Shown: positions 3,782 to 55,114 of the stretch, piece by piece | Numbering within the stretch: the stretch's first letter is position 1 | How the letters are laid out: each line of letters starts with the position of its first letter | DNA from: Candidatus Kaiserbacteria bacterium RIFCSPLOWO2_01_FULL_45_25 | GTDB lineage: Bacteria > Patescibacteriota > Minisyncoccia > Phycocordibacterales > UBA918 | Assembly: GCA_001781415.1 (NCBI GenBank) | Contig: MFLT01000003.1 | Location: 6,672-70,671 of the forward strand | Length of the DNA stretch: 64,000 nucleotides | Direction: 5' to 3' | The notes under the pieces: generated by a model | The model's database searches: none | Told to the model about the DNA's origin: nothing | Seen by the model: only the letters and a program-made list of their open reading frames with translations | Position numbers and translations under genes: made by a program

Positions 3782-4025
3782 CAGAAAATGACCACTCCTT
3801 TCAGGAGTGGTCATTTTGTGCCTCGGGAGCAAGCAAATAATTTTGCTTGCGTAGGGGGTCGAAAACCGCAGCGATGCCGTAGGCGAGCGAGGTGGGGTCG
3901 AGAGTACTTAGCAGAATCTGAGCTTGCGAAAGATTATGCTTAGTAACTCGTGACCGACCCATCTCCAATTATATATCTGTGACCGACCCCTGTCTTTCCA
4001 CCACCTGACCGACCCATCTCCAGCC
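3782..4025 (+). repeat. tRNA-linked composite repeat element, copy A
   Basis: Terminator palindrome aaaatgaccactcc..ggagtggtcatttt, then an inverted copy of the tRNA 3' end (gtgcctcgggag). A second palindrome and inverted T-arm (gtagggggtcgaa) follow. Then the conserved core ccgcagcgatgccgtaggcgagcgaggtggggtcgagagtacttagcagaatctgagc...tacttagtaactcgtgaccg. It ends in three degenerate direct copies of gaccgaccc(a/c)tctcc, matching the tRNA T-loop/3' end. Confidence 0.6.
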
Positions 4026-5713: not shown

Positions 5714-5990
5714 AAAATGAAAAACCAAAGCGTCAAGCTTTGGTTTTTCTAATTTTGCGATGGCCCACGAGGATTCGAAAGACGGAGCCGGGGACCCTTT
5801 GGGCCGGCGAGTCCGGGGAGAAAGTTCTTAACGAGCTTGCGAGTTTAGAAACTTGACCCCGAATCATCGTGGGATTAAATAGAACAAATATACTTAGTAA
5901 CTCGTGACCGCATGCGGGCCTCGCGGCACCTGCTAGATTGTGAGCATAGCGAGACAATATAACTTGGTGACCGTCAGGACGAATCCTCAT
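5714..5990 (+). repeat. tRNA-linked composite repeat element, copy B (two tandem units)
   Basis: Terminator palindrome aaaaaccaaagc..gctttggttttt, then an inverted tRNA 3' end (tgcgatggcccacgaggattcgaa). The core variant ends ...acgagcttgcgagtttagaaacttgacc and is followed by a direct copy of the tRNA 3' end (ccgaatcatcgtggg). A second unit ends ...atatacttagtaactcgtgaccg. Confidence 0.55.
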
Positions 5991-7703: not shown

Positions 7704-8375
7704 ATGAGAATCCTACTAGTTGAAGATGAACAACGATTGGCAGATTCACTTAAGCACGGGCTTGAGCAGAGTGGTTATGTAGTTGACCATTTCGCTGAGG
7801 GTCTACCCGCCGTTGATCGCCTGTCTTTATATAGAAACGAATATGACATTGTCATCCTCGACCTCATGCTGCCTGATATTGATGGACACACCATCTGCAA
7901 AACTGTTCGGGGCTTAGGCGTTACCCTACCAATACTAATTTTAACCGCCAGAGGAGAAACGGAAGACAAGGTTCTATTACTACAAAGCGGCGCTGATGAC
8001 TACATGGTAAAACCATTTGCGTTTAGTGAGCTACTCGCTCGCCTCCAAGCACTCTTGCGTCGTCCAGACGAGACCGTACCGAATGTATTATCAGTTGGTC
8101 AATTTACTCTTAATACTGCCACCCATACAATCTTTCGCTTTGAAGAAAAACTCCCACTGACTCTAAAAGAATTTATGTTGCTTGAATACTTCATGCGGCA
8201 TCCCAACCAAGTAATTGTTCGAGATGATATAATTGATCATGCTTGGAACTTTGACTTTTCGTCATTGAGTAACACTGTGGACGTTCACGTAAAGAACTTA
8301 CGTAAAAAAATAGGCACCGATGGAAATAAAATCATCAAAACAGTTCGAGGGGTCGGCTACCAGTTTGTGGGGTAA
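7704..8375 (+). CDS. OmpR-family two-component response regulator
   Basis: Receiver domain (LLVEDE...DIVILDLMLPDIDG...KPF) plus a winged-helix output domain (VHVKNLRKKIG...VRGVGYQF). Confidence 0.9.
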   Translation: MRILLVEDEQRLADSLKHGLEQSGYVVDHFAEGLPAVDRLSLYRNEYDIVILDLMLPDIDGHTICKTVRGLGVTLPILILTARGETEDKVLLLQSGADDYMVKPFAFSELLARLQALLRRPDETVPNVLSVGQFTLNTATHTIFRFEEKLPLTLKEFMLLEYFMRHPNQVIVRDDIIDHAWNFDFSSLSNTVDVHVKNLRKKIGTDGNKIIKTVRGVGYQFVG

Positions 8376-9426
8376 ATACCGCACCGACCTCTTCTTTAGG
8401 ACCACTTGCCACATTATTGTCCTGCAAGTAGTTTTTACTGTGATTGTGGTTATTGCTCTTTGGTTTGTTATGGACCTACTAATGAGAGACACAACTGAGG
8501 CACTGATGAGTACCTTTACCCAAATGCTGCAAGGTCAATCAGTGACTCCAGACAACGTAAGGGCCAGTATTGAAGATGTGCGCACTAATCATTTTTTACC
8601 GACAATGGTAATCAGTACTGCTCTCATGCTGTGCTTTGGATTTATTATTGTCTACGTAGCCTTGACCCCGACCCGTCGTTCAATGGAAAGACAAAAGCGG
8701 TTCATCAGCAATATTGCCCATGAACTACGAACTCCCCTGGCGGTCATACAAACCAATACAGATGTGGCACTCCTAAATAGTGACGTTCCGGCCAGACTTC
8801 GCCAAACCCTACAAAACAACAGTCAGGAGATAAGTCGAATTTCAGAAATCATGAACAATCTGCTCAGCCTCAGTAATTTCATGAGGAATGAGCAATTAAA
8901 ATTTGAAGACGTTGATCTGAGTGTTGTGGTGCAGCGGGTACTCGATACTCTAGAGGAAACCTCAAATCATAAAGACATCACTCTGGCCCTAAAGACCCAC
9001 ACCAATCAGGCTGTTCTTGGTAACGCTGTGGCGCTAGAGCAAGTGGTATTTAATCTAGTAAAAAATGCCATCACTCACACGCAGGCTCGTGGCCTAATAA
9101 CCATAGAAATTGAACCCTCTACTGATGGCAAATACATAGATTTAGCAGTTTCTGATTCCGGTAGTGGTATTGCTCGCAGTGATTTATTTCATATTTTTGA
9201 GCCATTCTATAGAGCACGTACTGCTCCAAAAAATGGTGGCAAAGGACTTGGTCTAGCCATTGTAAATGAAATTGTACAAATGCACCGTGGAAAAATAAAA
9301 ATACGGAGCACAGAAGGACAAGGGACCAAAGTCATTGTTTCAATCCTGCAAAGTACCCGAGAAATTACCTCAAAGGGTGACACTGAGGAACTGTCTATGG
9401 ATTTTTCACACAGAATATTGCAGTAG
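8320..9426 (+). CDS. Sensor histidine kinase (the start may lie downstream of the 56-bp overlap with the regulator)
   Basis: Two TM segments, H-box ISNIAHELRTPL, HATPase motifs (NLVKNAITHT, DSGSGIA, GGKGLGLAIV). Confidence 0.85.
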   Translation: MEIKSSKQFEGSATSLWGKYRTDLFFRTTCHIIVLQVVFTVIVVIALWFVMDLLMRDTTEALMSTFTQMLQGQSVTPDNVRASIEDVRTNHFLPTMVISTALMLCFGFIIVYVALTPTRRSMERQKRFISNIAHELRTPLAVIQTNTDVALLNSDVPARLRQTLQNNSQEISRISEIMNNLLSLSNFMRNEQLKFEDVDLSVVVQRVLDTLEETSNHKDITLALKTHTNQAVLGNAVALEQVVFNLVKNAITHTQARGLITIEIEPSTDGKYIDLAVSDSGSGIARSDLFHIFEPFYRARTAPKNGGKGLGLAIVNEIVQMHRGKIKIRSTEGQGTKVIVSILQSTREITSKGDTEELSMDFSHRILQ

Positions 9427-11514: not shown

Positions 11515-11935
11515 CGCGTATAAAAAACCGTCCAAGCACAAGCTTGGGCGTTTTTTATTGCGTGCGCCGGAGCAAGGCATCTGCATGCCTTGCGTGAGGG
11601 ATTCGAAAAGCGCAGCGATGCCGTAGGCGAGCGAGCTGGGGTCGAGAACACTTAGTAGATTATGAGCGAAGCGAAATAATATACTTAGTGATTTGTGACC
11701 GAATCCCTCCCCTCCCGGAGCACATTAGAATTAAAAACACCAAATGGTGCTTTTTCTAATGTGCGCCGGGAAGTGAAATGTCTGGGAGACATTTCATGTG
11801 GGATTCGAAGCCCGATTGAGCTAGATTGAAAGCAAAGCGCATCAATCTAGCCAATTGGGGTACTGGTCGTGTAACGACCGAAATTCCCTCCCGGCGCACG
11901 CGTTAAAAATCCTTGCTCAACAAGGTATTTTTATA
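11515..11935 (+). repeat. tRNA-linked composite repeat element, copy C (tandem, with two direct repeats of the tRNA-Tyr 3' end)
   Basis: Terminator palindrome, then inverted tRNA 3' end (tgcgtgcgccggag), a second palindrome and an inverted T-arm (cgtgagggattcgaa). Core gcgcagcgatgccgtaggcgagcgagctggggtcgagaacacttagtag...tacttagtgatttgtgaccg|aatccctcccctcccggagcaca. A second unit ends ggtcgtgtaacgaccg|aaattccctcccggcgcacgcg, and a terminator hairpin closes the element. Confidence 0.6.
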
Positions 11936-12932: not shown

Positions 12933-12950
12933 TCAACTAGGTCACCTACA

Positions 12951-13001
12951 CCCCGCCCACACCAGAAAGCCACCCGGCTTCGGTTGGGCGGTTTTCTTTT
13001 T
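12951..13001 (+). terminator. Conserved cassette terminator, copy 1
   Basis: ccccgcccacaccagaaagccacccggcttcggttgggcggttttcttttt: GC-rich stem, C(UUCG)G loop, T-run. Confidence 0.7.
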
Positions 13002-13023
13002 ACCAACACTCAAGTATAAATAT

Positions 13024-13051
13024 TGACTTTTTCACAAAATCTATGTTTAAT
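13024..13051 (+). promoter_or_regulatory. Conserved cassette promoter, copy 1
   Basis: -35 TTGACT, 16-nt spacer, -10 TTTAAT. This is part of an ~110-bp block that is near-identical to 13840-13920. Confidence 0.55.
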
Positions 13052-13105
13052 ACTTGCCTATCAGACACAGGGTGTGTTTGTGTGTTCCTTTACAGGAGTT
13101 TGAAA

Positions 13106-13762
13106 ATGATAGAGAGCAATGTCTGGGAAAATGACGGTGAAAGCACCATGTCACGGAGAAGTTTCTACTTCGCACTCGGCTGCGTCCTGACGTGGGGTTT
13201 CTTTGCCACCAACCTGGTGTCACAAGCCACTGCCGAATGGAAGCCTGGCCTGGTCTCCTTCCTTTTGGTTGGGCTTGTTCTGCCGATAGTGGGCATCCTG
13301 CTCAGCAGCTTCAGCCGCGTTGCCATCATCTCGTTCATCGGCTTCAACTTGGTGGTCATCCCGTTTGGCGCAGTCCTCGGCCCACTGCTCGCACAGTACG
13401 AACTGTCACAACCCGGCGTGGTGGCCCGCGCCGCTCTACTGACCGCGGCCGTCACGGGCATGATGGGCCTCTCCGGCTTGATGTTCCCGCAGTTCTATCG
13501 AAACATTGGCGGCGCTCTCTTCATGGCACTCTTGTGCCTTCTTGGAGTGCGCATCCTCCAAATGTTTGTGCCGAATCTGCAAAACGTCGGTTTCGTCGAC
13601 TACGCAGCGGCCGGACTGTTTGCTCTCTACATCGGTTACGACATGTGGCGAGCCAGCGAAATTCCAGCGAACCTGGATAACGCTGTGGATGTCGCAGTCA
13701 GTCTATACCTCGACATCATCAACCTCTTCCTCAACTTGCTGAAAATCAGCAGCGACGACTGA
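13106..13762 (+). CDS. Bax-inhibitor-1/YccA (TMBIM)-family membrane protein; start at MIESNV, not the ORF-track 13043
   Basis: RBS aggagtttgaaaATG. About 7 TM helices. The C-terminal motif SLYLDIINLFLNLLKI is characteristic of the BI-1/YccA family. Confidence 0.6.
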   Translation: MIESNVWENDGESTMSRRSFYFALGCVLTWGFFATNLVSQATAEWKPGLVSFLLVGLVLPIVGILLSSFSRVAIISFIGFNLVVIPFGAVLGPLLAQYELSQPGVVARAALLTAAVTGMMGLSGLMFPQFYRNIGGALFMALLCLLGVRILQMFVPNLQNVGFVDYAAAGLFALYIGYDMWRASEIPANLDNAVDVAVSLYLDIINLFLNLLKISSDD

Positions 13763-13766
13763 GGTA

Positions 13767-13818
13767 ACCCCGCCCACACCAGAAAGCCTCCCAGCTTCGG
13801 TTGGGCGGTTTTCTTTTT
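13767..13818 (+). terminator. Conserved cassette terminator, copy 2
   Basis: aaccccgcccacaccagaaagcctcccagcttcggttgggcggttttcttttt. Confidence 0.7.
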
Positions 13819-13839
13819 ACCAACACTCAAGTATAAATA

Positions 13840-13867
13840 TTGACTTTTTCAAAAAATCAATGTTTAA
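13840..13867 (+). promoter_or_regulatory. Conserved cassette promoter, copy 2
   Basis: ttgactttttcaaaaaatcaatgtttaatac: the same -35/-10 as copy 1, followed by the same cagggtgtgtttgtgttcctttgtaggag leader. Confidence 0.55.
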
Positions 13868-13919
13868 TACGTCCCTATCAAACACAGGGTGTGTTTGTGT
13901 TCCTTTGTAGGAGAAGACA

Positions 13920-14612
13920 ATGAACCAAAGCAAGATTCGTGACCAACGCATGTGGGCAAAGTGGAATGCGGCCGGGGCCGTCAGCGGGGCCATCAAGCTT
14001 GTGGCGGACTACTCTGCAGGAGATCAAAAGATCCTGGATGTCCTCTCCAATGAGATGACAAATGACGTCATCGACGAGGCGATCGGCAATTGGACGCAAC
14101 GGCATTTCAAGAAACCCAACCCCCGAGTGAAGACGCTGCTTCTGGGATACGCAACAGCGGTCACTAGAAAGGTGTTCGCTGGAACAACTCCCTACCCCGA
14201 CTTCTCACCGGAATGGAAACGAGACGTCTCTAATCGGGCCTACGCACTCCTGGATTTCAAGAAGTTCAAGGAGCAGCAAGTCCCAGTGATCGTAGACGCG
14301 CTTTCTCCCATCCTGGGCGATACACGCGACAAGTTCGAAAATGGCTTGCATGGTTATTCTCTCGCCAAGATTGCGAACGTCGTCGGCTGTGTCGCCTATA
14401 TGGTGAAGAACGGTCTCGAGCCCGAGCTCCTCCGTATGACACCCGAAGAAGCGAACGCGTCGCTCCTCAAGATGGCGGAAACTCGCGCCAAGACGCATCC
14501 TGACAAGGTGCTCACTTTCGATCCGTCGACCGACGAGCCCCATGAAGTGGTCACAGAGATCCTTCTCCGGACAAATCCGCCGGACATCAGCGCGATCCTA
14601 CCCAAGAGGTAA
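13920..14612 (+). CDS. Hypothetical protein (GC-rich cassette gene)
   Basis: ORF with RBS aggagaagacaATG. No recognisable family. Confidence 0.5.
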   Translation: MNQSKIRDQRMWAKWNAAGAVSGAIKLVADYSAGDQKILDVLSNEMTNDVIDEAIGNWTQRHFKKPNPRVKTLLLGYATAVTRKVFAGTTPYPDFSPEWKRDVSNRAYALLDFKKFKEQQVPVIVDALSPILGDTRDKFENGLHGYSLAKIANVVGCVAYMVKNGLEPELLRMTPEEANASLLKMAETRAKTHPDKVLTFDPSTDEPHEVVTEILLRTNPPDISAILPKR

Positions 14613-14664
14613 CCCCGCCCACACCAGAAAGCCTCCCGGCTTCGGTTGGGCGGTTTTCTTTTAT
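14613..14664 (+). terminator. Conserved cassette terminator, copy 3
   Basis: aaccccgcccacaccagaaagcctcccggcttcggttgggcggttttcttttattt. Confidence 0.7.
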
Positions 14665-14809
14665 TTAAGCATCGTCGTAACCAATGCCACCATCTGATCT
14701 TTCTTCCGTGGATCACTTTCAGCAATTAATAGAGTAATAGCAGTGAGGGCAGCTGGATTGATGTTGCGAGCCCCCTTCACTCCTACCCAATAAAACTGGT
14801 TTATCTGAA

Positions 14810-15034
14810 TTAGCAATGTGCAAATTTTGCACATACTGAATCAGCCTCTAACTCTCCATCTTTTATGACATTTCTAATATGCTTGGTAATAACAGAACGA
14901 TCGACTTGAAACATCTCAGCTATCTGTGCCTGAGTAGCCCAAATGGTTTCTGTTTTTAGATCCTCACGCAGCTCCAAAGCCCCCGACTTAGTCTGGTAAA
15001 TTACCATCTTTTGCTCTAGCTTTTTCTTGATCAT
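14810..15034 (-). pseudogene. N-terminal fragment (74 aa) of a RhuM-family (virulence protein RhuM / Fic-associated DNA-binding) gene
   Basis: VIYQTKSGALELREDLKTETIWATQAQIAEMFQVDRSVITKHIRNVIKDGEL matches the characteristic RhuM N-terminus. The ORF stops after 74 aa, so it is truncated or decayed. Confidence 0.5.
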
Positions 15035-15139
15035 GTTGATGGGTATTTTACCACACTAATTTGACACAGCCTGAGTCCTATAGTTTACTTTTGGACATCT
15101 TGCCTAAGTTGGCATGCGTTCTTCTTCAGGAGAGATTAG

Positions 15140-15712
15140 ATGAACCAAAACCGCATTTCGCAATATCTTGAATCCAGACGCGAGCGACTCCAGTTGCTTG
15201 AAGCGATGTGGAACGACCCCAAGGTACAGCTATACAACGATGTTGAGTTGCCGCCAAAAGATGATGCTCCATCGGTTTTTCTCAACGGCCCGACTTCGCG
15301 TCACCAAATCCTTGAGTTCAACCACCGCTGCCTGTCCGTGAAGTATCTGCGTGATGCCGGCTTCAACGGATGGATCTACGCCCCCGAACCACGAGGCCAC
15401 GAAGAACCTGGAGATTTCACGGAACGTGGATACATCCACGAATGGGAATCCAGTCGACGCTTCTCTGCATCCTGTAATTCATTCTGGATTCCGCGCGACA
15501 GTAACGAGTTGCTCGGCCTCAACAGCAACCTTGAGTTGGGTATTGATATCGGCAAACTGTTAGCAGGAACACAAAATCACAGGGTGTTTATCGGCTGGCC
15601 CGATCAGGCACTCCGTATGGGATTGCCCAACCACTATCGCAAACTCACAGGTCTCACCCTCTACCGAAACCAGCAGGTCATGTGCGAACAGATTGCACTC
15701 CTCGTGAAGTAA
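15140..15712 (+). CDS. Hypothetical protein (GC-rich cassette gene)
   Basis: ORF only; no family recognised. Confidence 0.45.
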   Translation: MNQNRISQYLESRRERLQLLEAMWNDPKVQLYNDVELPPKDDAPSVFLNGPTSRHQILEFNHRCLSVKYLRDAGFNGWIYAPEPRGHEEPGDFTERGYIHEWESSRRFSASCNSFWIPRDSNELLGLNSNLELGIDIGKLLAGTQNHRVFIGWPDQALRMGLPNHYRKLTGLTLYRNQQVMCEQIALLVK

Positions 15713-15717
15713 CGTCT

Positions 15718-15767
15718 CCCCCGCCCCACCAAAAGCCACACGGCTTCGGTTGGGCGGTTTTCTTTTA
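15718..15767 (+). terminator. Conserved cassette terminator, copy 4 (compensatory changes in the 5' arm)
   Basis: cccccgccccaccaaaagccacacggcttcggttgggcggttttcttttat. Confidence 0.65.
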
Positions 15768-15820
15768 TCTCGCAGTTAAACCCCGTTTGACTTAAGTTTA
15801 ACTTAAGTTAAACTTAAGCT

Positions 15821-16096
15821 ATGAATGCAAAAATAAAATCTAATATCGTTGGTCTCAAGGAACTTCGCGAAAACATGGAGACATACATAAAGCGAATCAA
15901 TAAAGGCGAGTCCATCACTGTGTTTCGTCGCTCAACACCCCTGTTTCGTATATCCCCTGTCGATTCAGAAGAAATTGGCTGGGAGACAGTGGTTGATTTT
16001 ACAAAAGAAACTGGCCGAGGTGTCCCGGTTGAAGAACTACTAAAATCAATGAAAGTGTATGGACAAAAATCAAAGGTTTCTAAAAAGACTAAGTAG
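15821..16096 (+). CDS. Phd/YefM-like type II antitoxin
   Basis: N-terminus GLKELRENMETYIKRINKGESITVFRRSTPLFRISPV fits the Phd/YefM pattern. It overlaps the downstream toxin gene by 38 bp. Confidence 0.5.
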   Translation: MNAKIKSNIVGLKELRENMETYIKRINKGESITVFRRSTPLFRISPVDSEEIGWETVVDFTKETGRGVPVEELLKSMKVYGQKSKVSKKTK

Positions 16097-16301
16097 CAAA
16101 GAATTTGCGGCGGTAGAAATAGTCTTGCGAAAGATTTTGTCCAAAAATACTACTGGTTTGGATATTAAAAAATTATCTGGATATAGTGACGTCTACCGAG
16201 TACGGACTGGTAATATTCGTATTATTTTCCTTGACGACAAAAGGCACGCTGAGGTGTTAGAGATAAGCAGACGTAGTGAAAAAACGTACAAAGACTTTTA
16301 A
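16059..16301 (+). CDS. RelE/ParE-family type II toxin (mRNA interferase)
   Basis: LSGYSDVYRVRTGNIRIIFLDDKRHAEVLEISRRSEKTY carries the RelE/ParE core motifs (YRiRvG.yRiiy..d..v.il.i.hR...Y). Confidence 0.65.
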   Translation: MDKNQRFLKRLSSKEFAAVEIVLRKILSKNTTGLDIKKLSGYSDVYRVRTGNIRIIFLDDKRHAEVLEISRRSEKTYKDF

Positions 16302-16364
16302 AGATTTCTAATTTTAATAAATACCCACAGTCTGCTCCCCTCAGTTGACATATTGCATAGCTGA

Positions 16365-16394
16365 CCGGTCTTGGGTTGGGCGGTTTTCTTTTAT
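16365..16394 (+). terminator. Conserved cassette terminator, copy 5 (partial)
   Basis: ggtcttgggttgggcggttttcttttatac. Confidence 0.5.
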
Positions 16395-26927: not shown

Positions 26928-27190
26928 GCAAAACACCCTATCCACATGGATAGGGTGTTTTGCTTTAGCATCTGCCCTGCGGCAGATGCGTGCGTATGTG
27001 CCGACCGCAGCGATGCCGGAGGCGAGCGAGGTGGGGTCGAGAGTACTTAGCAGAATCTGAGCTTGTGAAAGATTATGCTTAGATAAAACTTTCTGGGAGA
27101 TAGTTTTATCGTGACCACAAAAGGAGATACCCCTTGAAGGCAAGACTAACAATTATACTTAGTGATTCGTGACCACACGTGCCCCCAACA
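26928..27190 (+). repeat. tRNA-linked composite repeat element, copy E
   Basis: Palindrome aaagcaaaacaccctatcca..tggatagggtgttttgcttt, then inverted 3' end tgcgtatgtgcc. Core ccgcagcgatgccggaggcgagcgaggtggggtcgagagtacttagcagaatctgagcttgtgaaagattatgcttag, with an inserted 28-nt palindrome ataaaactttctgggagatagttttatc. A second end follows: tacttagtgattcgtgacca|cacgtgccccc. Confidence 0.6.
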
Positions 27191-27331: not shown

Positions 27332-27495
27332 CAGTAATAAAACCGCCTCTGGCGGTTTTATTGTGCGCGGGAGAGCAAAGCGCTAATGCGCTTTGCGTAG
27401 GACTTGAAAGCCGGAACGATGCCGGAGGCGAGTGAGGCGGGGTCGCGGAAAATCTCTGAAAGAGATTTATCTGTGACCAAGTCCTCTCCTTGCTT
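27332..27495 (+). repeat. tRNA-linked composite repeat element, copy F (short core)
   Basis: Palindrome aataaaaccgcc..ggcggttttatt, then inverted 3' end gtgcgcgggagag, palindrome caaagcgc..gcgctttg, inverted T-arm cgtaggacttgaa. Core agccggaacgatgccggaggcgagtgaggcggggtcgcgg...atctgtgacc|aagtcctctcc, a direct copy of the tRNA T-loop/3' end. Confidence 0.6.
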
Positions 27496-46393: not shown

Positions 46394-46612
46394 GAAGTAT
46401 CTACTTACCTCGTAGTACTTATTACTCTCTGTAGCAGGCACTGCCGGACGGAGCGTAGTGAGTCGCCCCTTTCCTAGGGCGACGAACCGCGAGTCGGGGT
46501 CGAGAACACTTAGTAGAATTTTGCACGAAGTGCTAAATTATACTTAGTGATTCGTGACCGGTGCCGGTATATCTTTTAACAAAACCCGCCTCTAGGCGGG
46601 TTTTGTTAAAAT
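46394..46612 (+). repeat. Composite repeat element core, copy G (no adjacent tRNA), with terminator
   Basis: gcaggcactgccggacggagcgtagtgagtcgcccctttcctagggcgacgaaccgcgagtcggggtcgagaacacttagtagaattttgcacgaagtgctaaattatacttagtgattcgtgaccg, then the terminator aaaacccgcctctaggcgggtttt. Confidence 0.55.
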
Positions 46613-48199: not shown

Positions 48200-48271
48200 G
48201 GCCCTATCGTATAACGGCTAGTACACAGGATTCTCATTCCTGGAATCGGAGTTCGATTCTCCGTAGGGTCA
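48200..48271 (+). tRNA. tRNA-Glu(CTC)
   Basis: Acceptor ggcccta/tagggtc, anticodon loop uuCUCau, T-arm cggagttcgattctccg. Confidence 0.7.
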
Positions 48272-48702
48272 CATCGGTATTAAACAAACGACCACTTCTC
48301 AGGAAGTGGTCGTTTGTTTAATAGAAAGCAAAGAGTTTTGCTTTCGTACCGATGTGACAGTCGGAGCACTGTGAGCTTGCGAACAAGCGAGACGGGGTCG
48401 AGAGTACTTAGATTTTTATGAGTAAAACGAAATAAAAAGCTTAGTAACTCGTGACCACAGGAGTGACCACCAATGTTGCCTGCGGCCTGCTGTGAGGCCG
48501 CAGCGATGCCGGAGGCGAGCGAGGCGGGGTCGAGAGTACTTAGCAGAATCTGAGCTTTGCGAAAGATTATGCTTAGATAAAACTTTCTGGGAGATAGTTT
48601 TATCGTGGCACAAATGCAGAACTGAGTGGAGCGAAGACCTTATTTAACGAGCTTGCGAGCTTAGAAACTTGACCCCGATTCTCCGTAGGGTCACACTTTT
48701 TT
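48272..48702 (+). repeat. tRNA-linked composite repeat element, copy H (two tandem cores)
   Basis: Two palindromes, then the inverted 3' end gtaccgatgtgac. Core 1 ...gagacggggtcgagagtacttag...atgagtaaaacgaaataaaaagcttagtaactcgtgacc. Core 2 ccgcagcgatgccggaggcgagcgaggcggggtcgagagtacttagcagaatctgagc..., with the same inserted 28-nt palindrome as copy E. Ends ...gcgagcttagaaacttgacc|ccgattctccgtagggtcaca (direct tRNA 3'-end copy), then a T-run. Confidence 0.6.
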
Positions 48703-48774: not shown

Positions 48775-49437
48775 ATGAAAAATATATTCATTGTAGTTTT
48801 ATTGATACTACTATCGGGGGTAGGAGTATTTATTTATACAAATGTAAAAAATAATGATTTACCCTCAAATGAAAAGGTTACCTACACTAATAATTTACTT
48901 GGTTATTCAGTAGTTTTACCAGATGGATATGAAGTGGCTGAAGAATATACAAAATTTGTTAATCAAGACCTTGAATTAGGATCTATAACATATGAAGATA
49001 AAGTTTTTGATATCCAACGAGCAGAAATTATTGTCTTTTCTCCTGACACAATAGAAGAGCAGCTAGAGACAATAAATAGAGCATCATCATATTCAAACGA
49101 AGGTAAAATGCTTACTCAAGAACCAAACTACATCTATATTGAACCAAATCCAGTTTCACCAGAGATAAGAAATCGTTTAGAGGAGAAACTACAAGAAATA
49201 AACCCAAAAGATGAAGATGGATTCCGTCTAGCTAATACACCTTTAATGTTTAGTGCGGAAAAAGTACAAGAAAGAATTATAAAGACAGTTTTGCTTGAAG
49301 AGACAAAAAAATACTATGTCAACGAAAGTTACAATGATACTGGATATCAAGAGGTGTATGGCTTAGACATTGTTGTTCCAAATAATAATGAGGCTAAACA
49401 AATTGTAGCCAAGATGATAGCTAGTCTAGAATATTAG
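48775..49437 (+). CDS. Hypothetical membrane-anchored protein, strongly AT-rich
   Basis: N-terminal TM helix. Lys/Asn/Glu/Ile/Tyr-rich composition, unlike neighbouring genes. Confidence 0.45.
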   Translation: MKNIFIVVLLILLSGVGVFIYTNVKNNDLPSNEKVTYTNNLLGYSVVLPDGYEVAEEYTKFVNQDLELGSITYEDKVFDIQRAEIIVFSPDTIEEQLETINRASSYSNEGKMLTQEPNYIYIEPNPVSPEIRNRLEEKLQEINPKDEDGFRLANTPLMFSAEKVQERIIKTVLLEETKKYYVNESYNDTGYQEVYGLDIVVPNNNEAKQIVAKMIASLEY

Positions 49438-49561
49438 TAATTGTTATCTACTTCCCAAACCCCTCCAAGACTTCATCTCCTTAACAAGTTGGTTCCAATT
49501 CGTAATACTTAGTGTCACAACGGGTACAGAAAAAGCGGGACGATTCTCCGTAGATTAACAT

Positions 49562-49959: not shown

Positions 49960-50127
49960 ACCAACAGCACTGAGCACCAGCTCGCAAAAACAACTCCTAG
50001 GAGTTCGCTTCTGCGAGCTGTTTTTGTTTATAAAATCTGAATTGCTTCTATAGCCGGATAACTGTTACCTGTAGCATTTAAAAAACCGTCCCGAAGGACG
50101 GCTTTGTGCTTGTGGCGGCAGGAGCCA

Positions 50128-50544
50128 CTAGGACGGGAACTTATTGTACACATCTAGTTTTATATCCAAAACCAGACTATTTAATTTGAGAAACATATCC
50201 TCTATCACTTCCTCCGCTTCGTCCAAGCTTTGGTGAATAAGCGTAAGACGTTGACTCATCAAAGTGGTGATTTGTTCGCTGGTCAAATTCTCATCAGCCG
50301 AGTCAACCAAAGACTGGCACATCTCTTTTTCCAGCAAAGAAAACTCGGTCCTAACCAAGGCGAGATAATCACTCTGTCTGATAAAAAACCACTCCTCAAG
50401 CCTTTGCAGCCTGTCCAAAATGGCCACCAACTCCTGTTTGTATGTGGCCTTTCCTTCAAATAGATTTTTAAGCAACAACTCCTCGATCAGGAGGAAGTGC
50501 CGGGCAAAAAACACAAATTCCTTAAGAGTGAATTTGTTGTCCAT
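50128..50544 (-). CDS. Hypothetical alpha-helical protein (start MDNKF at 50544)
   Basis: RBS ggaggtgattATG. Preceded in its leader by the conserved 22-nt motif. Confidence 0.5.
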   Translation of the reverse strand: MDNKFTLKEFVFFARHFLLIEELLLKNLFEGKATYKQELVAILDRLQRLEEWFFIRQSDYLALVRTEFSLLEKEMCQSLVDSADENLTSEQITTLMSQRLTLIHQSLDEAEEVIEDMFLKLNSLVLDIKLDVYNKFPS

Positions 50545-50575
50545 AATCACCTCCTGTTTTAGGTACCGCTCCAAA

Positions 50576-50597
50576 ATGGGAGTTCTAAACCTATTAA
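50576..50597 (-). promoter_or_regulatory. Conserved 5'-leader motif TAGAACTCCCATTTTGGAGCGG (minus-strand sense), copy 1
   Basis: Identical 22-mer in the leaders of 50128..50544 and 52026..52481. Contains a small CUCC/GGAG hairpin. A TTGAAT-N17-TTTAAT promoter lies just upstream. Confidence 0.5.
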
Positions 50598-50674
50598 ACA
50601 CTTATCTTCCCTATAATTCAAATTATTAAAATCAAAACAGCTCGACTTTAGTCGAGCTGTTTTTTCTATTTTCT

Positions 50675-51904
50675 CTACAACCCTTTAGCTTTATACCCAG
50701 CAATTTCTTTCTTCAACTCCACCATTTTCAACTCCCGATTAATCATCATCTTATTCATTTTTTCTGTCTCTTCTAAGCGTTTTTTCAAAATTTCCCCAAT
50801 CTCTCGCACTTTTTCATTTGATTCATCTTCCGCTTTTTCGGCGGCAACAATTTTATCGAGCAGACCATTTATAGATGATGCCAGCACCCCAATTTCATCA
50901 TTAGTCCCTTCTTTGATTCGAATAGATAAATCTTTTTTATCACCTATCTGCCTCACTTTCTTTTCTAGTCTAGTGAAGCGGGCCACCACAAAGAGTTCAA
51001 GAAGCACAATGAGAATTAGTCCGAAAAAGATTAAGAGAGCGCTGGTAGCAATCATATAAAAAGACAGAGTGGCCTTTCCTTGCATATACACGTCTCTAGT
51101 CTCTTCTATCTTTAAAGTGATTAGTGGTTTCCCATAATAATCATTGATTACTTTATATGCAGCGATAGACGCTTCAGACAGTGGACTAACGAACTGATTA
51201 TTCTCAGTTGTTAGAGACTGCTCAGCAGCTATAACATCAGCAGGAGAATCTGGACTTCCGTATGGAAAGACTTCCAAGTTAAGATGAGTGAGAGCACGAA
51301 TCTTGGCAATAACGTTTTTATCTATAAAGGTTCCGAACGTAAGGCTGCCGTGGATTGGACCTTCCCCGGCACTCGTTAATATCGGGAGTGAAGTAAATAA
51401 AAATGGCCCGTTAGTGAATTGCAAAATACCAGAAATAGAACTCTCAGTATCAGGATGAGTTATCAGTTCACGATGTGATTCAAAGTATTCTCTTATTTCG
51501 GTGGAGTCTACCTCTTCCTCAGTCTTACTATCAATGACTCGTATAAACACGACACCACCTTCTGGATTAGCAAAAATCATCGAGTTTATTTCAAGATTGG
51601 CTATGCTGTATGACTTGAGATTGGAGTCGTAATATTCTTGATTTAAATCAGTAACAAATTGATAAGTATCGTCCCAAGTTGCCCAGTCCTGCAGCTTTAC
51701 AGTTAGCTGAGGGAAAAGGTTTTTAATAGCATCATCAGCTCTTTCCAGATCCTTAATTATTTCTTTGGTTTCAATATTTGAATAACTTTGCGGATGGATT
51801 TTAGAAGAAACTACGTAAAGAGTTGAAGCTAGACACAAAATAGATACCAAAATAACCAGAATCATTTTCTGGGTAATAGACAGATCCTTTAGTTTTTGAA
51901 ACAT
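50675..51904 (-). CDS. Membrane sensor with a periplasmic domain, HAMP domain and short C-terminal coiled coil (no kinase, MCP or GGDEF output domain)
   Basis: TM1 (ILVILVSILCLASTLYVV), ~250-aa extracytoplasmic domain, TM2, HAMP-like segment VVARFTRLEKKVRQIGDKKDLSIRIKEGTNDEIGVLASSINGLL, then ~70 aa of coiled coil. Confidence 0.55.
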   Translation of the reverse strand: MFQKLKDLSITQKMILVILVSILCLASTLYVVSSKIHPQSYSNIETKEIIKDLERADDAIKNLFPQLTVKLQDWATWDDTYQFVTDLNQEYYDSNLKSYSIANLEINSMIFANPEGGVVFIRVIDSKTEEEVDSTEIREYFESHRELITHPDTESSISGILQFTNGPFLFTSLPILTSAGEGPIHGSLTFGTFIDKNVIAKIRALTHLNLEVFPYGSPDSPADVIAAEQSLTTENNQFVSPLSEASIAAYKVINDYYGKPLITLKIEETRDVYMQGKATLSFYMIATSALLIFFGLILIVLLELFVVARFTRLEKKVRQIGDKKDLSIRIKEGTNDEIGVLASSINGLLDKIVAAEKAEDESNEKVREIGEILKKRLEETEKMNKMMINRELKMVELKKEIAGYKAKGL

Positions 51905-52025
51905 ACAATTACTATTGAGTATATAACTTTGCCTTATTAAGACAACGATTTATATACACCTATCAATCACTTAAATATTAAAATTGAAAACAGCTCGACC
52001 AAGGTCGAGCTGTTTGATTTGAGCT

Positions 52026-52481
52026 TCAGCGCCGCTTCTTGCGAGCTGGCAATGAAACGCCGTACGTGATCGTGAGTTCACAAGTGATCTTACTGACCAT
52101 TTTAATGTATACGGCCTGCACCTGCATAACACTTGCTTCAAATTCGGCTGCTTGAACCGCCCACTTCGATACGTCAGCAGTCAGAGCTTTTTTCTGCTCT
52201 TGAAGACCCAAGTCAGGTGGGCGAATCTTTTCTGTAAAAGCAGTCCAGTGAATATTATCTACTGCAGCCAAGAAGAGCTCGTCTTGCCGACTCACGTAAT
52301 CAGCCAAAATTGATTCAAAGCCAGATTCCAGCTCCGTAACAAAATCAGTGCAGGCGTTACGCACAATGAGTGCCTGTATGTACTGAGCTTCTTTGGGGAG
52401 TACTTTTATTTTATCGTTGGCTGCCCTAAGCGCAGCCAGGCGTTGTTTCCAAACACTAAAATACTTGTCCAGATTAATCAT
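52026..52481 (-). CDS. Hypothetical alpha-helical protein (start MINLDK at 52481)
   Basis: RBS ggaggtgtgtgATG. The leader carries the conserved 22-nt motif. Confidence 0.5.
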   Translation of the reverse strand: MINLDKYFSVWKQRLAALRAANDKIKVLPKEAQYIQALIVRNACTDFVTELESGFESILADYVSRQDELFLAAVDNIHWTAFTEKIRPPDLGLQEQKKALTADVSKWAVQAAEFEASVMQVQAVYIKMVSKITCELTITYGVSLPARKKRR

Positions 52482-52506
52482 CACACACCTCCGCGGTTTC
52501 AAAGAC

Positions 52507-52528
52507 CCGCTCCAAAATGGGAGTTCTA
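52507..52528 (-). promoter_or_regulatory. Conserved 5'-leader motif TAGAACTCCCATTTTGGAGCGG, copy 2
   Basis: Same 22-mer as copy 1. A TTGACA -35 lies upstream. Confidence 0.5.
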
Positions 52529-52599
52529 CACTAATTAGATTCCTGTCCAGGTACTATGTCAAGAAAAAAGTCGAGCATAACGCCCGACTTTTTTGAGGA

Positions 52600-53010
52600 C
52601 TACATCCCAAGCAGTAGTTGCCGCTCATTTGATACCAGCTGCCTCAGCTCGGCAATCTTATCAGCAATCCGCTCGCGCGTCTCAGTCACTTCAGCCTCCA
52701 GACCAGATAGCTGGGCGGCAAAGACAAACCTTGACTCAACTCTGTTGGTAGACTTGTCCATTTGGAGCAACTCGCCCTCTGACTTTTGCATAAGCGAAAA
52801 TGAAGCCATCACTTGGCCAAGCTCCCCGAGCATCATTCGCTCAGCTGAACGCAAGACCAAGTCCAGACTATCAAGTTCGTAACGAATACCAGCACGCAAT
52901 TTGAGCTTGTCCTCCTCTGGCAAACCAAGTTGCAACAAGAGGCGCGCGGTACGCTCACACTGATCTACTATCAGGCGAGCCAGAGTTTCTATCACATCAA
53001 GTGAGTTCAC
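52600..53010 (-). CDS. Hypothetical alpha-helical protein (probable GTG start at 53010; the ORF-track start at 53073 abuts a terminator hairpin and has no RBS)
   Basis: RBS ggaggtgtgctGTG. Confidence 0.4.
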   Translation of the reverse strand: MNSLDVIETLARLIVDQCERTARLLLQLGLPEEDKLKLRAGIRYELDSLDLVLRSAERMMLGELGQVMASFSLMQKSEGELLQMDKSTNRVESRFVFAAQLSGLEAEVTETRERIADKIAELRQLVSNERQLLLGM

Positions 53011-53299
53011 AGCACACCTCCGTAGGTTAAGACAATCTATGACTATATAACTCCTAAAGGCAATGTTGGTCAAGCTTGCTTATATTTGAAAATAGGCGCC
53101 AATGGCGCCTATTTTCAAACAGCATGAACTAATTAAGCCACAATCCCACCCCAGTACTTACCAACCGTAAATGCAAAACAAAGTGTAATAGCCCAAATAA
53201 CGAGTTGATCTGTAGTTATATTTTTCATAGTGATTATTTAAAAACTCTACTACTATTCTACACCGCCTAGAGATATACCCCTTCACAGATATAAACAGA

Positions 53300-55114
53300 C
53301 TATTCAACCGTCACGCTCTTGGCCAAGTTTCTTGGACGGTCAACATTAAGTCCTTTAGCTACACCAACATGGTAAGCAAAGAGCTGTAATGGCAACACTG
53401 CCACAATTGGCTGAAGTAGTGGATGAACCTTTGGCATATAAATAACGTCATCAGCTACGGCTGAGATTTGTAGATCTCCCTCCGTGGCCAATGCCACTAC
53501 TGGCGCTAGACGAGCTCGGACTTCTTCGATATTTGAAATCATTTTTTCATACACATCGTTTTGCGGCACAATAGCCAGTACAGGGAAATCTTTATCGAGC
53601 ATGGCAATTGGGCCATGCTTTAATTCCCCGCCCGCATACGCCTCAGCGTGAATGTACGAAACCTCTTTCAACTTAAGAGCGCCTTCATAGGCAATTGGCG
53701 AATGAAACGTTCGTCCGATATACATAAAGTCTCTATATTGTGCATACTTCTTGGCCACCTTAGCAATCTCATCGTTCTTCTTTAGGACCGCCCGCATGGT
53801 CTCAGGTAGTGACTGCAAAGCTTTAACAATATCCAAACCTTCTGCCTTGGACATACCTCGCTGGCGCCCCAGGTATAGAGCCATGAGAGCAAAAGCAGTA
53901 AGTTGTGATATATAGGCCTTGGTCGACGCTACTGCCACCTCTGGGCCAGCGTGATTATAGATACCAGCATCTACCTCACGCGCAATGGCTGAGCCGACCA
54001 CGTTTACCATACCAAGGGTGAGCATCTGCATACTCTTGGCTTTTTCAACTGAAGCTCTGGTATCGGCCGTTTCACCAGACTGACTCACAAACAACGCTGC
54101 CGCTTTTTTGTCTGGGTAAGTCTTTTTGTAACGATACTCACTGCCGAGCTCTACCTCAACCGGGATATGAGCATACTCTTCTAGCATGTACCGCCCCACC
54201 TCTCCGGCATAGTACGCAGAGCCGCAACCAATAATATGCAGTCTCTGAATATGTTTAATGCGTTCTTCAACCATCTCCAATCCGCCGAGTTTGGCAGTAC
54301 CCTCTTCGACATTGAGTCGGCCTCGAAGGGTGTTCAAGACCACCTCTGGTGCCTCAAACATTTCTTTCAGCATGAAGTGAGCAAAACCGTTTTTTTGTAC
54401 TGCCTCATGTTCCCATTCCACTATCTCAGATTTTTTGGTTTTCTTTTCGCCTCGGATAGTAGTTACTTCAAAAGAATCTTTGCTCACACTAGCTATTTCA
54501 CCGTCATCCAAATACACCACCCGTTTGGTGTGTACCAGGAGTGCAGAAGGATCGGAGGCAATAAAGTTTCCTTCTTTTCCGAGACCAAGCACAATCGGGC
54601 TTCCCATTCTTGCCACGATGATTTTGTTTGGTTCGTGTTCACTCACCACCGCCAGACCATACGTACCACGCACCGCTCGCAAGGCCAAGCGTGTAGCTTC
54701 GAGTAAGTCACCTTTATAAAACGAACCGATGAGCTTAACCAACACTTCGGTATCCGTCTCAGAATAAAAAGTAATTCCCTGTACGGCCAGTCCTTCTTTA
54801 AGTTCACGGTAATTTTCAATAATGCCGTTATGGACCAGCCAAATCCGTCCACTCATATCGTGGTGTGGATGAGCATTCTTTTCTGATGGGGCACCGTGGG
54901 TAGCCCAACGAGTATGAGCTATGCCAGCAGTACCTTGGATATCTTTGGGGAGTTTGGCCTCCAGACTACTAATTGGACCAGCGGCTTTTATAACACCGTG
55001 ACCATGGACAAAAATACCAGCTGAGTCATAGCCGCGGTATTCAAGGGTACGTAATCCTTCAAGCAGAAATGGTGCTGCTTTCTCAGTTCCTATGTATCCA
55101 AATATTCCACACAT
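53300..55114 (-). CDS. glmS: Glutamine--fructose-6-phosphate aminotransferase
   Basis: N-terminal MCGIFGYIG (Ntn amidotransferase), two SIS domains, C-terminal ...VDRPRNLAKSVTVE. Confidence 0.95.
   Translation of the reverse strand: MCGIFGYIGTEKAAPFLLEGLRTLEYRGYDSAGIFVHGHGVIKAAGPISSLEAKLPKDIQGTAGIAHTRWATHGAPSEKNAHPHHDMSGRIWLVHNGIIENYRELKEGLAVQGITFYSETDTEVLVKLIGSFYKGDLLEATRLALRAVRGTYGLAVVSEHEPNKIIVARMGSPIVLGLGKEGNFIASDPSALLVHTKRVVYLDDGEIASVSKDSFEVTTIRGEKKTKKSEIVEWEHEAVQKNGFAHFMLKEMFEAPEVVLNTLRGRLNVEEGTAKLGGLEMVEERIKHIQRLHIIGCGSAYYAGEVGRYMLEEYAHIPVEVELGSEYRYKKTYPDKKAAALFVSQSGETADTRASVEKAKSMQMLTLGMVNVVGSAIAREVDAGIYNHAGPEVAVASTKAYISQLTAFALMALYLGRQRGMSKAEGLDIVKALQSLPETMRAVLKKNDEIAKVAKKYAQYRDFMYIGRTFHSPIAYEGALKLKEVSYIHAEAYAGGELKHGPIAMLDKDFPVLAIVPQNDVYEKMISNIEEVRARLAPVVALATEGDLQISAVADDVIYMPKVHPLLQPIVAVLPLQLFAYHVGVAKGLNVDRPRNLAKSVTVE

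Follow-up and report, generated by a model that had tools for sequence, protein, structure and literature searches.

Gene order and a shared leader element

In a 64-kb stretch of DNA from an uncultured groundwater Candidatus Kaiserbacteria of the Rifle aquifer (hereafter referred to as the window), four co-oriented minus-strand genes, A to D, follow glmS, and the leaders of two of them, B and D, share an identical 22-mer, TAGAACTCCCATTTTGGAGCGG. The locus is part of a Rifle aquifer metagenome scaffold of 964,844 bp, and the gene C product is identical to an NCBI protein of Candidatus Kaiserbacteria bacterium RIFCSPLOWO2_02_FULL_45_11. Candidate Phyla Radiation (CPR) bacteria have tiny genomes and, to our knowledge, almost no characterised regulation. 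The minus-strand order is glmS, a gene for a 31-amino-acid (aa) hydrophobic peptide, a terminator, A, B, C (the sensor gene) and D, with the starts of A, B and D set at codons preceded by a Shine-Dalgarno (SD) sequence. The features of the locus are as follows.

53300-55114 (minus): glmS
53133-53228 (minus): gene of the 31-aa hydrophobic peptide MKNITTDQLVIWAITLCFAFTVGKYWGGIVA, directly after glmS
53045-53073 (minus): putative promoter of gene A (TTGACC, 17 nt, TTATAT)
52600-53010 (minus): gene A, orphan helical protein of 136 aa, start codon GTG at 53010
52564-52594 (minus): intrinsic terminator 3′ of gene A, inverted repeat I15 followed by a T run
52534-52562 (minus): putative sigma70-type promoter of gene B (TTGACA, 17 nt, TCTAAT), read from the sequence
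52507-52528 (minus): 22-mer, gene B copy, core ACTCC-CATTTT-GGAGCGG
52482-52506 (minus): rest of the B leader, GTCTTTGAAACCGC-GGAGG-TGTGTG, SD GGAGG at 52488-52492
52026-52481 (minus): gene B, orphan helical protein of 151 aa, start codon ATG at 52481
51988-52015 (minus): intrinsic terminator 3′ of gene B
50675-51904 (minus): gene C, CHASE4-HAMP sensor of 409 aa
50634-50663 (minus): intrinsic terminator 3′ of gene C
50593-50621 (minus): putative sigma70-type promoter of gene D (TTGAAT, 17 nt, TTTAAT), read from the sequence
50566-50587 (minus): 22-mer, gene D copy, exact match
50545-50565 (minus): rest of the D leader, TACCTAAAACA-GGAGG-TGATT, SD at 50550-50554
50128-50544 (minus): gene D, three-helix protein of 138 aa, start codon ATG at 50544
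50078-50101 (minus): intrinsic terminator 3′ of gene D, CCGTCCTTCGGGACGG followed by a T run

A G+C-rich hairpin followed by a T run lies at the 3′ side of each of A, B, C and D, and the terminators of B and C are 76% identical over 50 nt. As read from this layout, the four genes are all monocistronic, each with a promoter and a terminator of its own.

The two exact copies of the 22-mer (50566-50587 and 52507-52528) lie 1,941 bp apart, where 100 shuffles gave an expected count of 0, and no further copy with up to three mismatches is present; this count covers the 64-kb window of a genome of ~965 kb, a scope that counts against any statement on the extent of a regulon. Both copies begin 5 nt downstream of the −10-like hexamer and end 14–15 nt before the SD sequence (GGAGG), and the −35 hexamers, TTGACA and TTGAAT, are near consensus with a spacer of 17 nt. 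The initial annotation had described four co-oriented genes and an identical 22-mer lying, in the B and D leaders, between a sigma70-like promoter and the ribosome-binding site (RBS); the sequence bears out both statements, the match being exact. The core of the motif can form a hairpin of 4 bp (CUCC/GGAG) with a 6-nt loop. Identity between the two leaders continues past the 22 nt as a weaker homology that runs from the −35 hexamer through the start codon.

Several other identities of the repeat were considered and rejected. The motif is unlikely to be coding sequence (‘RTPILER’, as when gene callers extend D and E upstream), since the frame differs in B and in the D gene of the relative L038, the extension would start inside the −10 region, and the internal ATG has a strong SD before it. 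It is not a repeat of clustered regularly interspaced short palindromic repeats (CRISPR), as there are two copies 1,941 bp apart and no array in the window. A 36-nt segment, GGTTTAGAACTCCCATTTTGGAGCGGTACCTAAAAC (50556-50591, minus strand), agrees at 20 of 36 positions, mainly at its ends, with the Streptococcus pyogenes type II repeat; with no array or cas gene in the window, this is probably a coincidence. Scans for further copies gave 15 matches to the 18-mer GAACTCCCATTTTGGAGC in genome contigs and 7 in metagenome contigs, and 10 matches to the degenerate form ACTCCMATYYYGGAGCGG in viral contigs. None of these is accompanied by a promoter-like upstream context or by the remainder of the leader; found in unrelated organisms or viral contigs, they resemble coding sequence and are about as numerous as expected by chance, the genome and metagenome scans having returned none of the source species’ own copies.

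Conservation of the leader and its candidate modes of action

Nine related contexts were compared with the window, and the motif was located in relatives by regular-expression and weight-matrix scans. Three relatives keep glmS, the peptide gene, the sensor gene and small genes, with the following contents.

L038: A, B, C, D, E
L037: ahpC, X, C, D, E
L045: ahpC, a leader with a 5-codon remnant of X, C, D, E

The motif stands upstream of every B/X, D and E gene in the window and in these three relatives. It also precedes a distant homologue of D on a G+C-richer contig (L046), as TAAGCTCCAATCCCGGAGCAG after TTGAAT, 17 nt and TTTAAT, so that 11 intact copies are found before B/X, D and E genes in the window, L037, L038, L045 and L046. 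The 22-mer of gene B is kept at 20 of 22 positions in both L038 and L037; that of gene D is kept at 21 of 22 in L038 and at 18–19 of 22 in L037 and L045, and its core in L046. L037, L038 and L045 retain the B-type promoter elements TTGACA and TTTAAT as well as the D-type promoter, which is retained in L046 too. The leaders, 40–49 nt in length, conform to the consensus YAGRA-CTCC-MAUYYY-GGAGCGG-(G)TCTTTGAAA-SD-ATG.

The 31-aa peptide encoded after glmS is 100% identical in L038 and 87% identical in L037, and L045 (31 aa) and L042 (32 aa) each have a same-sized peptide gene called at the equivalent position; the gene probably encodes a real small membrane protein. At L045:5545-5640, a clean deletion has removed gene X beyond the second codon, and its intact B-type promoter-leader now lies directly upstream of the sensor gene, which may have come under the control of this leader.

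The segment 50128-53010 is a divergence hotspot, its synonymous divergence (dS) from L038 being at least 2–3 times that of glmS and tsaD. Protein identities and dS values between the window and L038 are as follows.

glmS: protein 98%, dS 0.57
tsaD: protein 91%, dS 0.61
C (sensor): protein 76%, dS 1.9
A: protein 68%, dS 1.1
B: protein 49%, dS 1.8
D: protein 53%, dS saturated

Thus dS lies within 0.45–0.61 for the flanking genes pep31, glmS and tsaD, and is 1.1–1.9 or saturated for the genes of the locus. Since dS is so far above that of the flanks, the comparison implies that the locus carries much older alleles, by exchange with more distant lineages. The ratio of non-synonymous to synonymous divergence of the sensor gene is 0.075, indicating purifying selection.

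The leader has outlasted this divergence. Between the window and L038, the 22-mers are 91–95% identical, the rest of the B leader 100% (25/25) and the rest of the D leader 81%, whereas the coding DNA of B and D is 61–62% identical (B 61%), the other intergenic DNA of the locus 66–80%, and the third codon positions of B, C and D 45–53%. In L042, where gene D persists as a remnant, the adjacent motif copy is decaying by a deletion and by a stem-breaking change of GGAG to GGAA. Because the leader outlasts the coding and intergenic divergence and decays beside a lost gene, this conservation pattern very probably marks a functional element of a regulatory kind, as the initial annotation had proposed; the motif is more than a chance occurrence.

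As the main reading, to which we assign a probability of roughly 50%, we propose lineage-specific expression control of the small cassettes by the leader, most plausibly through a 5′-terminal RNA hairpin combined with SD occlusion. A stem-loop (CUCC/GGAG stem, MAUYYY loop) would begin at about the inferred transcription start; together with downstream pyrimidine stretches pairing with the SD, it would set mRNA stability or ribosome access, and the B/X, D and E genes would be switched jointly by one trans-acting factor or physical cue. We favour RNA-level control over an operator because of the asymmetric conservation of flanks and loop, a change that preserves a G-U pair, and the constant distance to the SD. 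The hairpin is invariant in 9 of 10 aligned leaders; the single C to U change, in the leader of E in L038 (L038_E), retains a G-U pair, and L046 gains an extra G-C pair. Variation in the loop sits mainly in its 3′ half (UUUU, CUU, CCU, CCC) and is confined to pyrimidines, the stem being otherwise invariant. In single-sequence folds of 6 of the 8 D/E-type leaders, GGUCUUU or GGUACCU(U) pairs with the SD region by arms of differing sequence, and in the D leader of the window the SD is predicted to be paired (probability of being unpaired ~0).

A number of observations weigh against this proposal. The only structure returned by RNAalifold is the 4-bp CUCC/GGAG hairpin, with a weak consensus energy of −4.5 kcal/mol, and no two-sided compensatory change occurs in any hairpin pair. 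The SD-occluding helix shifts its register among copies, and the B-type leaders, L038_E and L046 form it weakly or not at all; of five leader folds compared with shuffles, three are no more stable. The transcription start is placed by inference at about the first nucleotide of the 22-mer, and the non-canonical −10 hexamers TCTAAT and TTTAAT are not flagged by a consensus scan, which demands A at position 2. Finally, the position of the motif, +1 to +22, would suit a repressor operator just as well.

Such an operator ranks second, as a possibility that we hold tentatively: a repressor, possibly dimeric, would bind CTCC-N6-GGAG over the +1 position of the B/X, D and E genes and block RNA polymerase, while gene A, lacking the 18-nt insert, would escape. 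It is favoured by the weakness of the hairpin and its lack of covariation, by the conserved unpaired bases, in that conservation outside the stem (TAGRA, GCGG) exceeds what a 4-bp hairpin needs, and by the position of the motif, 5 nt past the −10-like hexamer and covering +1. The CTCC/GGAG sequences form an inverted repeat, which in the leader of D in L037 (L037_D) becomes a perfect 6+2+6 palindrome, CTCCAA-TC-TTGGAG. However, the half-sites are just 4–5 bp long, and the flanks are asymmetric, an A before CTCC and a C after GGAG being invariant and non-complementary. Conservation of the spacer is one-sided (MAT), an unusual pattern in a dyad site; in L038_E, a C to T change disrupts the dyad but leaves an RNA G-U pair; and no transcription factor gene is conserved at the locus.

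The 5′-terminal hairpin that we prefer has counterparts among known leaders, which include RBS-occluding ones (RNA thermometers of the fourU type) and 5′-terminal stabiliser stem-loops (ompA, aprE, STAB-SD). Like these, the B/D/E leaders are short, carry a stem-loop within a few nt of the inferred 5′ end, and contain an internal GGAG. The pairing of a U-rich or pyrimidine stretch with the SD through G-U pairs, as in RBS-occluding leaders, is predicted likewise in 6 of the 8 D/E-type leaders. Elements that act by structure alone need no sequence constraint, whereas the B/D/E leaders have a conserved loop and conserved flanks. No leader matched Rfam 15, in which sub-threshold matches fell on the terminators only (29 bits against 114); at gathering thresholds, the tRNAs are the only Rfam matches in the whole window.

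Other known regulatory elements were examined and set aside. The operator of HrcA, controlling inverted repeat of chaperone expression (CIRCE), has the consensus TTAGCACTC-N9-GAGTGCTAA. The motif lies, as CIRCE does, between promoter and start codon and matches the left half, TTAGAACTC, at 8 of 9 positions; the right half matches at no more than 5 of 9 in any register and the genes are not chaperone genes, and we regard the likeness as a coincidence. A −35 element (GAAC) of the extracytoplasmic function (ECF) type is not conserved (GGAC and AAGC in relatives), and a sigma-54 promoter (TGGCAC-N5-TTGC) would be in the wrong register, and the D leader has no TTGC. For control of the CsrA type, acting at two GGA sites, a pattern search of the window detected no CsrA-like open reading frame (ORF). 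A pseudoknot between loop and SD (UCNN with GNGA; U-A to C-G, L037_D versus L045) is consistent with the sequences, but with one or two events and alternative pairings it is an idea only.

The sensor, its C-terminal tail and the small helical proteins

The initial annotation had described gene C as encoding a sensor with two transmembrane (TM) helices around a ~250-aa extracytoplasmic domain, a HAMP-like segment and a coiled coil, and without an output domain. Pfam searches support this description and assign the extracytoplasmic domain, suspected to be CHASE- or Cache-like, to CHASE4. The relevant segments of gene C are as follows.

51269-51724 (minus): CHASE4 domain
50846-50989 (minus): HAMP domain
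50702-50764 (minus): conserved C-terminal tail EKMNKMMINRELKMVELKKEI (EKMNKxMVxRELKMxELKKEI)

CHASE4 (PF05228) covers residues 61–212 (E 2.5e-34; 118.8 bits against a cut-off of 26.2), and HAMP (PF00672) covers residues 306–353 (E 4.9e-7; 30.4 bits against 25), directly after TM2. Hydrophobic segments, read from the sequence at about residues 15–35 and 283–308, flank CHASE4, which on this predicted topology is extracytoplasmic, between TM1 and TM2. After HAMP, ~56 aa of helix or coiled coil follow and the protein ends with no output domain. Pfam gave no match to HisKA/DHp and HATPase_c at E ≤1, the C-terminal 56 aa contain no histidine, and NCBIfam kinase matches are confined to the HAMP region. 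Neither did Pfam match an MCPsignal domain, the NCBIfam CtpM match covering only residues 275–355, the HAMP region. The gene itself lacks the leader motif and a canonical SD, and has a G+C content of ~38%, compared with ~47% in its flanks.

A word-limited search returned a family of ~30 sensor proteins, 34–77% identical and all ~405–412 aa long. Because ~30 orthologues have the same length, the kinase-less sensor is, as judged from these alignments, a conserved architecture and not a truncation; the earlier designation of a sensor without a kinase thus stands. The DW..WDD.Y motif of CHASE4 is invariant across the orthologues, and the most conserved cytoplasmic part is the last ~30 residues, L..RLEETEKMNK.MV.RELKMVELKKEI..LK. 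A 12.5-kb locus, L039, encodes five sensors that end in MN..M..RE[LIV][KR][ML].ELK[KR][EQ]I..LK: one CHASE4-HAMP protein, one 4HB_MCP-HAMP protein (331 aa) and three PAS-only proteins (164, 168 and 173 aa).

L039:11222-12217 (minus): tail-bearing ORF
L039:10558-11052 (minus): tail-bearing ORF
L039:5324-5845 (minus): tail-bearing ORF
L039:2506-3012 (plus): tail-bearing ORF
L039:6001-7227 (plus): tail-bearing ORF

The heptad character of the tail is clear. In profile searches, it matched no Pfam family and, in the PDB, designed coiled-coil peptides only. The occurrence of one tail behind CHASE4, 4HB_MCP and PAS inputs suggests a shared protein-protein output; the sensor would signal through this zipper-like C-terminal tail to some partner, and no link to the small proteins was found.

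Accessory membrane sensors are known to control sensor-less histidine kinases, as in LiaF-LiaS, YycH/YycI-WalK and BceAB-BceS. Gene C resembles them as a membrane sensor without catalytic output, and its orthologue in L041 lies in the operon of a HAMP-HisKA-HATPase kinase; in contrast to them, gene C has no kinase adjacent to it in the window (the short kinase described below lies 42 kb away) or in most relatives, and no sequence relationship was found. As in the CHASE4 receptors of Pseudomonas aeruginosa (the diguanylate cyclases PA14_53310 and PA14_37690; PMC13277305), CHASE4 lies between two TM helices in gene C, but known CHASE4 receptors have GGDEF/EAL or histidine kinase outputs, whereas gene C and its ~30 orthologues end ~56 aa past HAMP. 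The tail resembles the S-helix (Anantharaman, Balaji and Aravind 2006, PMC1592074) in being a conserved helical segment of ~40 residues after HAMP or PAS, with heptads. The S-helix, however, bears an ERT signature and links two domains, while the tail lacks ERT (residues 354–409), is C-terminal and has the signature MN..M..RE[LV][KR]M.ELK[KR]EI.

Elsewhere in the window, an OmpR-type response regulator and a short histidine kinase are encoded at 7704-9426 (plus; kinase 8320-9426). The kinase has two TM helices with an outer loop of ~40 aa, no HAMP and no sensor domain, as in intramembrane-sensing kinases; that it is a client of the sensor, 42 kb from gene C, is conceivable.

The small proteins A, B and D have no match above cut-off in Pfam, PHROGs, PADLOC or NCBIfam, so that the initial annotation of three helical proteins without a recognisable family holds in these four libraries, and no well-known family emerged. 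Its all-helical description is supported for B and D by structure models. The AlphaFold2 model of D (predicted local distance difference test score, pLDDT, 90.3; predicted template modelling score 0.81) has helices at residues 7–26, 35–82 and 89–135, and that of B, made from a single sequence (pLDDT 72), at 4–25, 30–86 and 92–140. The predicted layout is the same, short-long-long, with a helix of ~20 residues followed by two of ~48. A Foldseek search with the D model gave nothing below E 0.1. The orthologues in L038 are 68% identical for A and 49% for B, and the D/E family comprises 11 clusters among 1.84 billion representative proteins.

The initial annotation had combined these genes into a sensor with small helical partners. 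Such a module, in which the kinase-less CHASE4-HAMP sensor would signal to three-helix proteins docking on its coiled coil or tail and the shared leader would co-express the partners, is unlikely in our view. It is consistent with the gene order in the four genomes that carry small genes, where D/E immediately follow the sensor gene and B/X immediately precede it; that D and E are directly downstream wherever present also counts against our own reading. In addition, the sensor combines the lack of an enzymatic output with a highly conserved, docking- or zipper-like C-terminal helix, and B and D are modelled as long helical hairpins of a shape fit for coiled-coil packing. However, the closest sensor orthologue, that of L042 (77% identical), has no intact small gene beside it, only a decayed D-type leader and a remnant of the D N-terminus, and the one in L043 (70%) is followed by neither D nor E, on a contig that does not include the upstream flank. 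Orthologues at 43–60% identity lie in unrelated contexts without small genes.

L039: ftsI-murE, PAS-only proteins, an ECF-like sigma factor
L040: KARI
L041: a dCache protein with a binding protein, a HAMP kinase (HAMP-HisKA-HATPase), two response regulators
L044: murE/Usg

Furthermore, L039 has no D/E-like gene despite its five tail-bearing sensors, the 11 D/E clusters compare with ~30 sensor orthologues from the word-limited search, the sensor gene lacks the motif, and terminators separate all the genes. The proposed partnership is thus unsupported, small genes being absent from L042, L039, L040, L041 and L044, and D and E from L043. Since relatives keep the sensor without the small genes, these are, judged by gene content, dispensable, lineage-restricted neighbours of the sensor.

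Quite doubtful, too, is a broader scheme of kinase- and cyclase-free signalling in Kaiserbacteria-type CPR bacteria, in which sensors with CHASE4-HAMP, 4HB_MCP-HAMP or stand-alone PAS inputs would dock through one zipper tail onto, or hetero-oligomerise with, a common cytoplasmic partner, and B, D and E would be leader-co-controlled adaptors or decoys in the glmS-trxB subgroup.

Origin of the cassettes and significance

The initial annotation had called the shared motif regulatory rather than a product of duplication, and had noted that the proteins of B and D do not look homologous. A regulatory role is very probable; duplication, however, applies as well. A, B, D and E have homologous promoter-leaders of ~85 bp, and the stretch from −35 to the start codon can be aligned across the B, D and E types. 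The promoter-leader of gene A aligns with that of B save for an 18-nt gap exactly over ACTCCCATTTTGGAGCGG, the hairpin (alignment A9). Because of this homologous promoter-leader and the same helix layout of B and D, the cassettes are probably one ancestral unit that was duplicated, the leader being held thereafter by selection. Homology of the flanks beyond the 22 nt, which would speak for mere duplication, is present, but the motif has probably also been kept by selection across genomes. As for the proteins, A, B and D show no mutual similarity by BLASTP or hhalign, while B and D share the predicted three-helix layout. Two points tell against a common origin of the proteins: hhalign probabilities among the A, B and D/E proteins are below 1%, and their homology rests only on the shared leader and helix topology.

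In this model, each cassette would consist of a promoter, a ~47-nt leader, a small three-helix gene and a terminator, as one of a changeable, monocistronic set. The proteins A, B/X, D and E would have diverged past sequence recognition while the promoter-leader stayed near constant. The 22-mer would be the core of the leader, an 18-nt insert (ACTCC-N6-GGAGCGG) that the B/X, D and E cassettes carry and A lacks. The locus would be a fast-diverging stretch between glmS and tRNA-Glu/trxB in one Candidatus Kaiserbacteria subgroup, with the conserved CHASE4-HAMP-coiled-coil sensor standing alone beside the cassettes.

It is very improbable that the 22-mer is functionless, either as a relic of recent duplication or gene conversion, or as an anchor of homology through which recombination exchanges diverged cassettes: the identity of both window copies, the variable cassette content among close relatives and the older alleles at the locus (dS 1.1–1.9 or saturated versus 0.45–0.61), which point to recombination with diverged lineages, would fit, but the motif persists at orthologous positions despite saturated synonymous sites and in the distant L046, substitutions spare the stem and cluster in the loop, the copy beside a lost gene decays (deletion, GGAG to GGAA), and differences between genomes follow type (B versus D/E in L037) with no homogenisation within genomes.

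Other repeats occur in the window. The 3′ 20 nt of tRNA-Glu, CGATTCTCCGTAGGGTCACA, have an exact copy 422 bp downstream and, another 865 bp on, a copy of 85% identity, in an att-like arrangement. The second segment holds a low-G+C (27–33%) gene whose 220-aa product has a hydrophobic N-terminal segment; the dS of this gene from L038 is 0.08, compared with ~0.6 for housekeeping genes, which indicates that the islet was probably acquired by recent horizontal transfer. A dispersed repeat family of ~80–200 nt, mostly just 3′ of tRNA genes (Leu, Trp, Tyr, Lys, Leu, Glu), has no Rfam match at gathering thresholds. Finally, a series of small genes at 12944-16394 forms tandem cassettes, each ending in the same 57-nt terminator module, CCCGCCCACACCAGAAAGCC...GGCTTCGGTTGGGCGGTTTTCTTTT.

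48200-48272, 48676-48695, 49541-49560: tRNA-Glu islet, gene at 48775-49437
3865-3943, 5828-5910, 11609-11701, 27004-27113, 27410-27445, 46489-46560, 48386-48607: dispersed repeats

Taken together, the leader element, very likely regulatory, marks a duplicated cassette family and not a sensor module. The leader or operator element and the HAMP sensor without an output both belong to known kinds, in a lineage-specific form. The leader element of 18–22 nt is conserved and experimentally tractable, and orphan genes that bear it make up a small regulon. Of the leads, the tail motif most deserves to be followed: an output-less sensor family with a common C-terminal helix points to a protein-protein output that is missing from current domain catalogues. 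If the tail is no output module, the finding is a lineage-specific promoter-leader repeat of local interest; if it is a real one, it would explain many of the HAMP-only and PAS-only proteins in CPR genomes.

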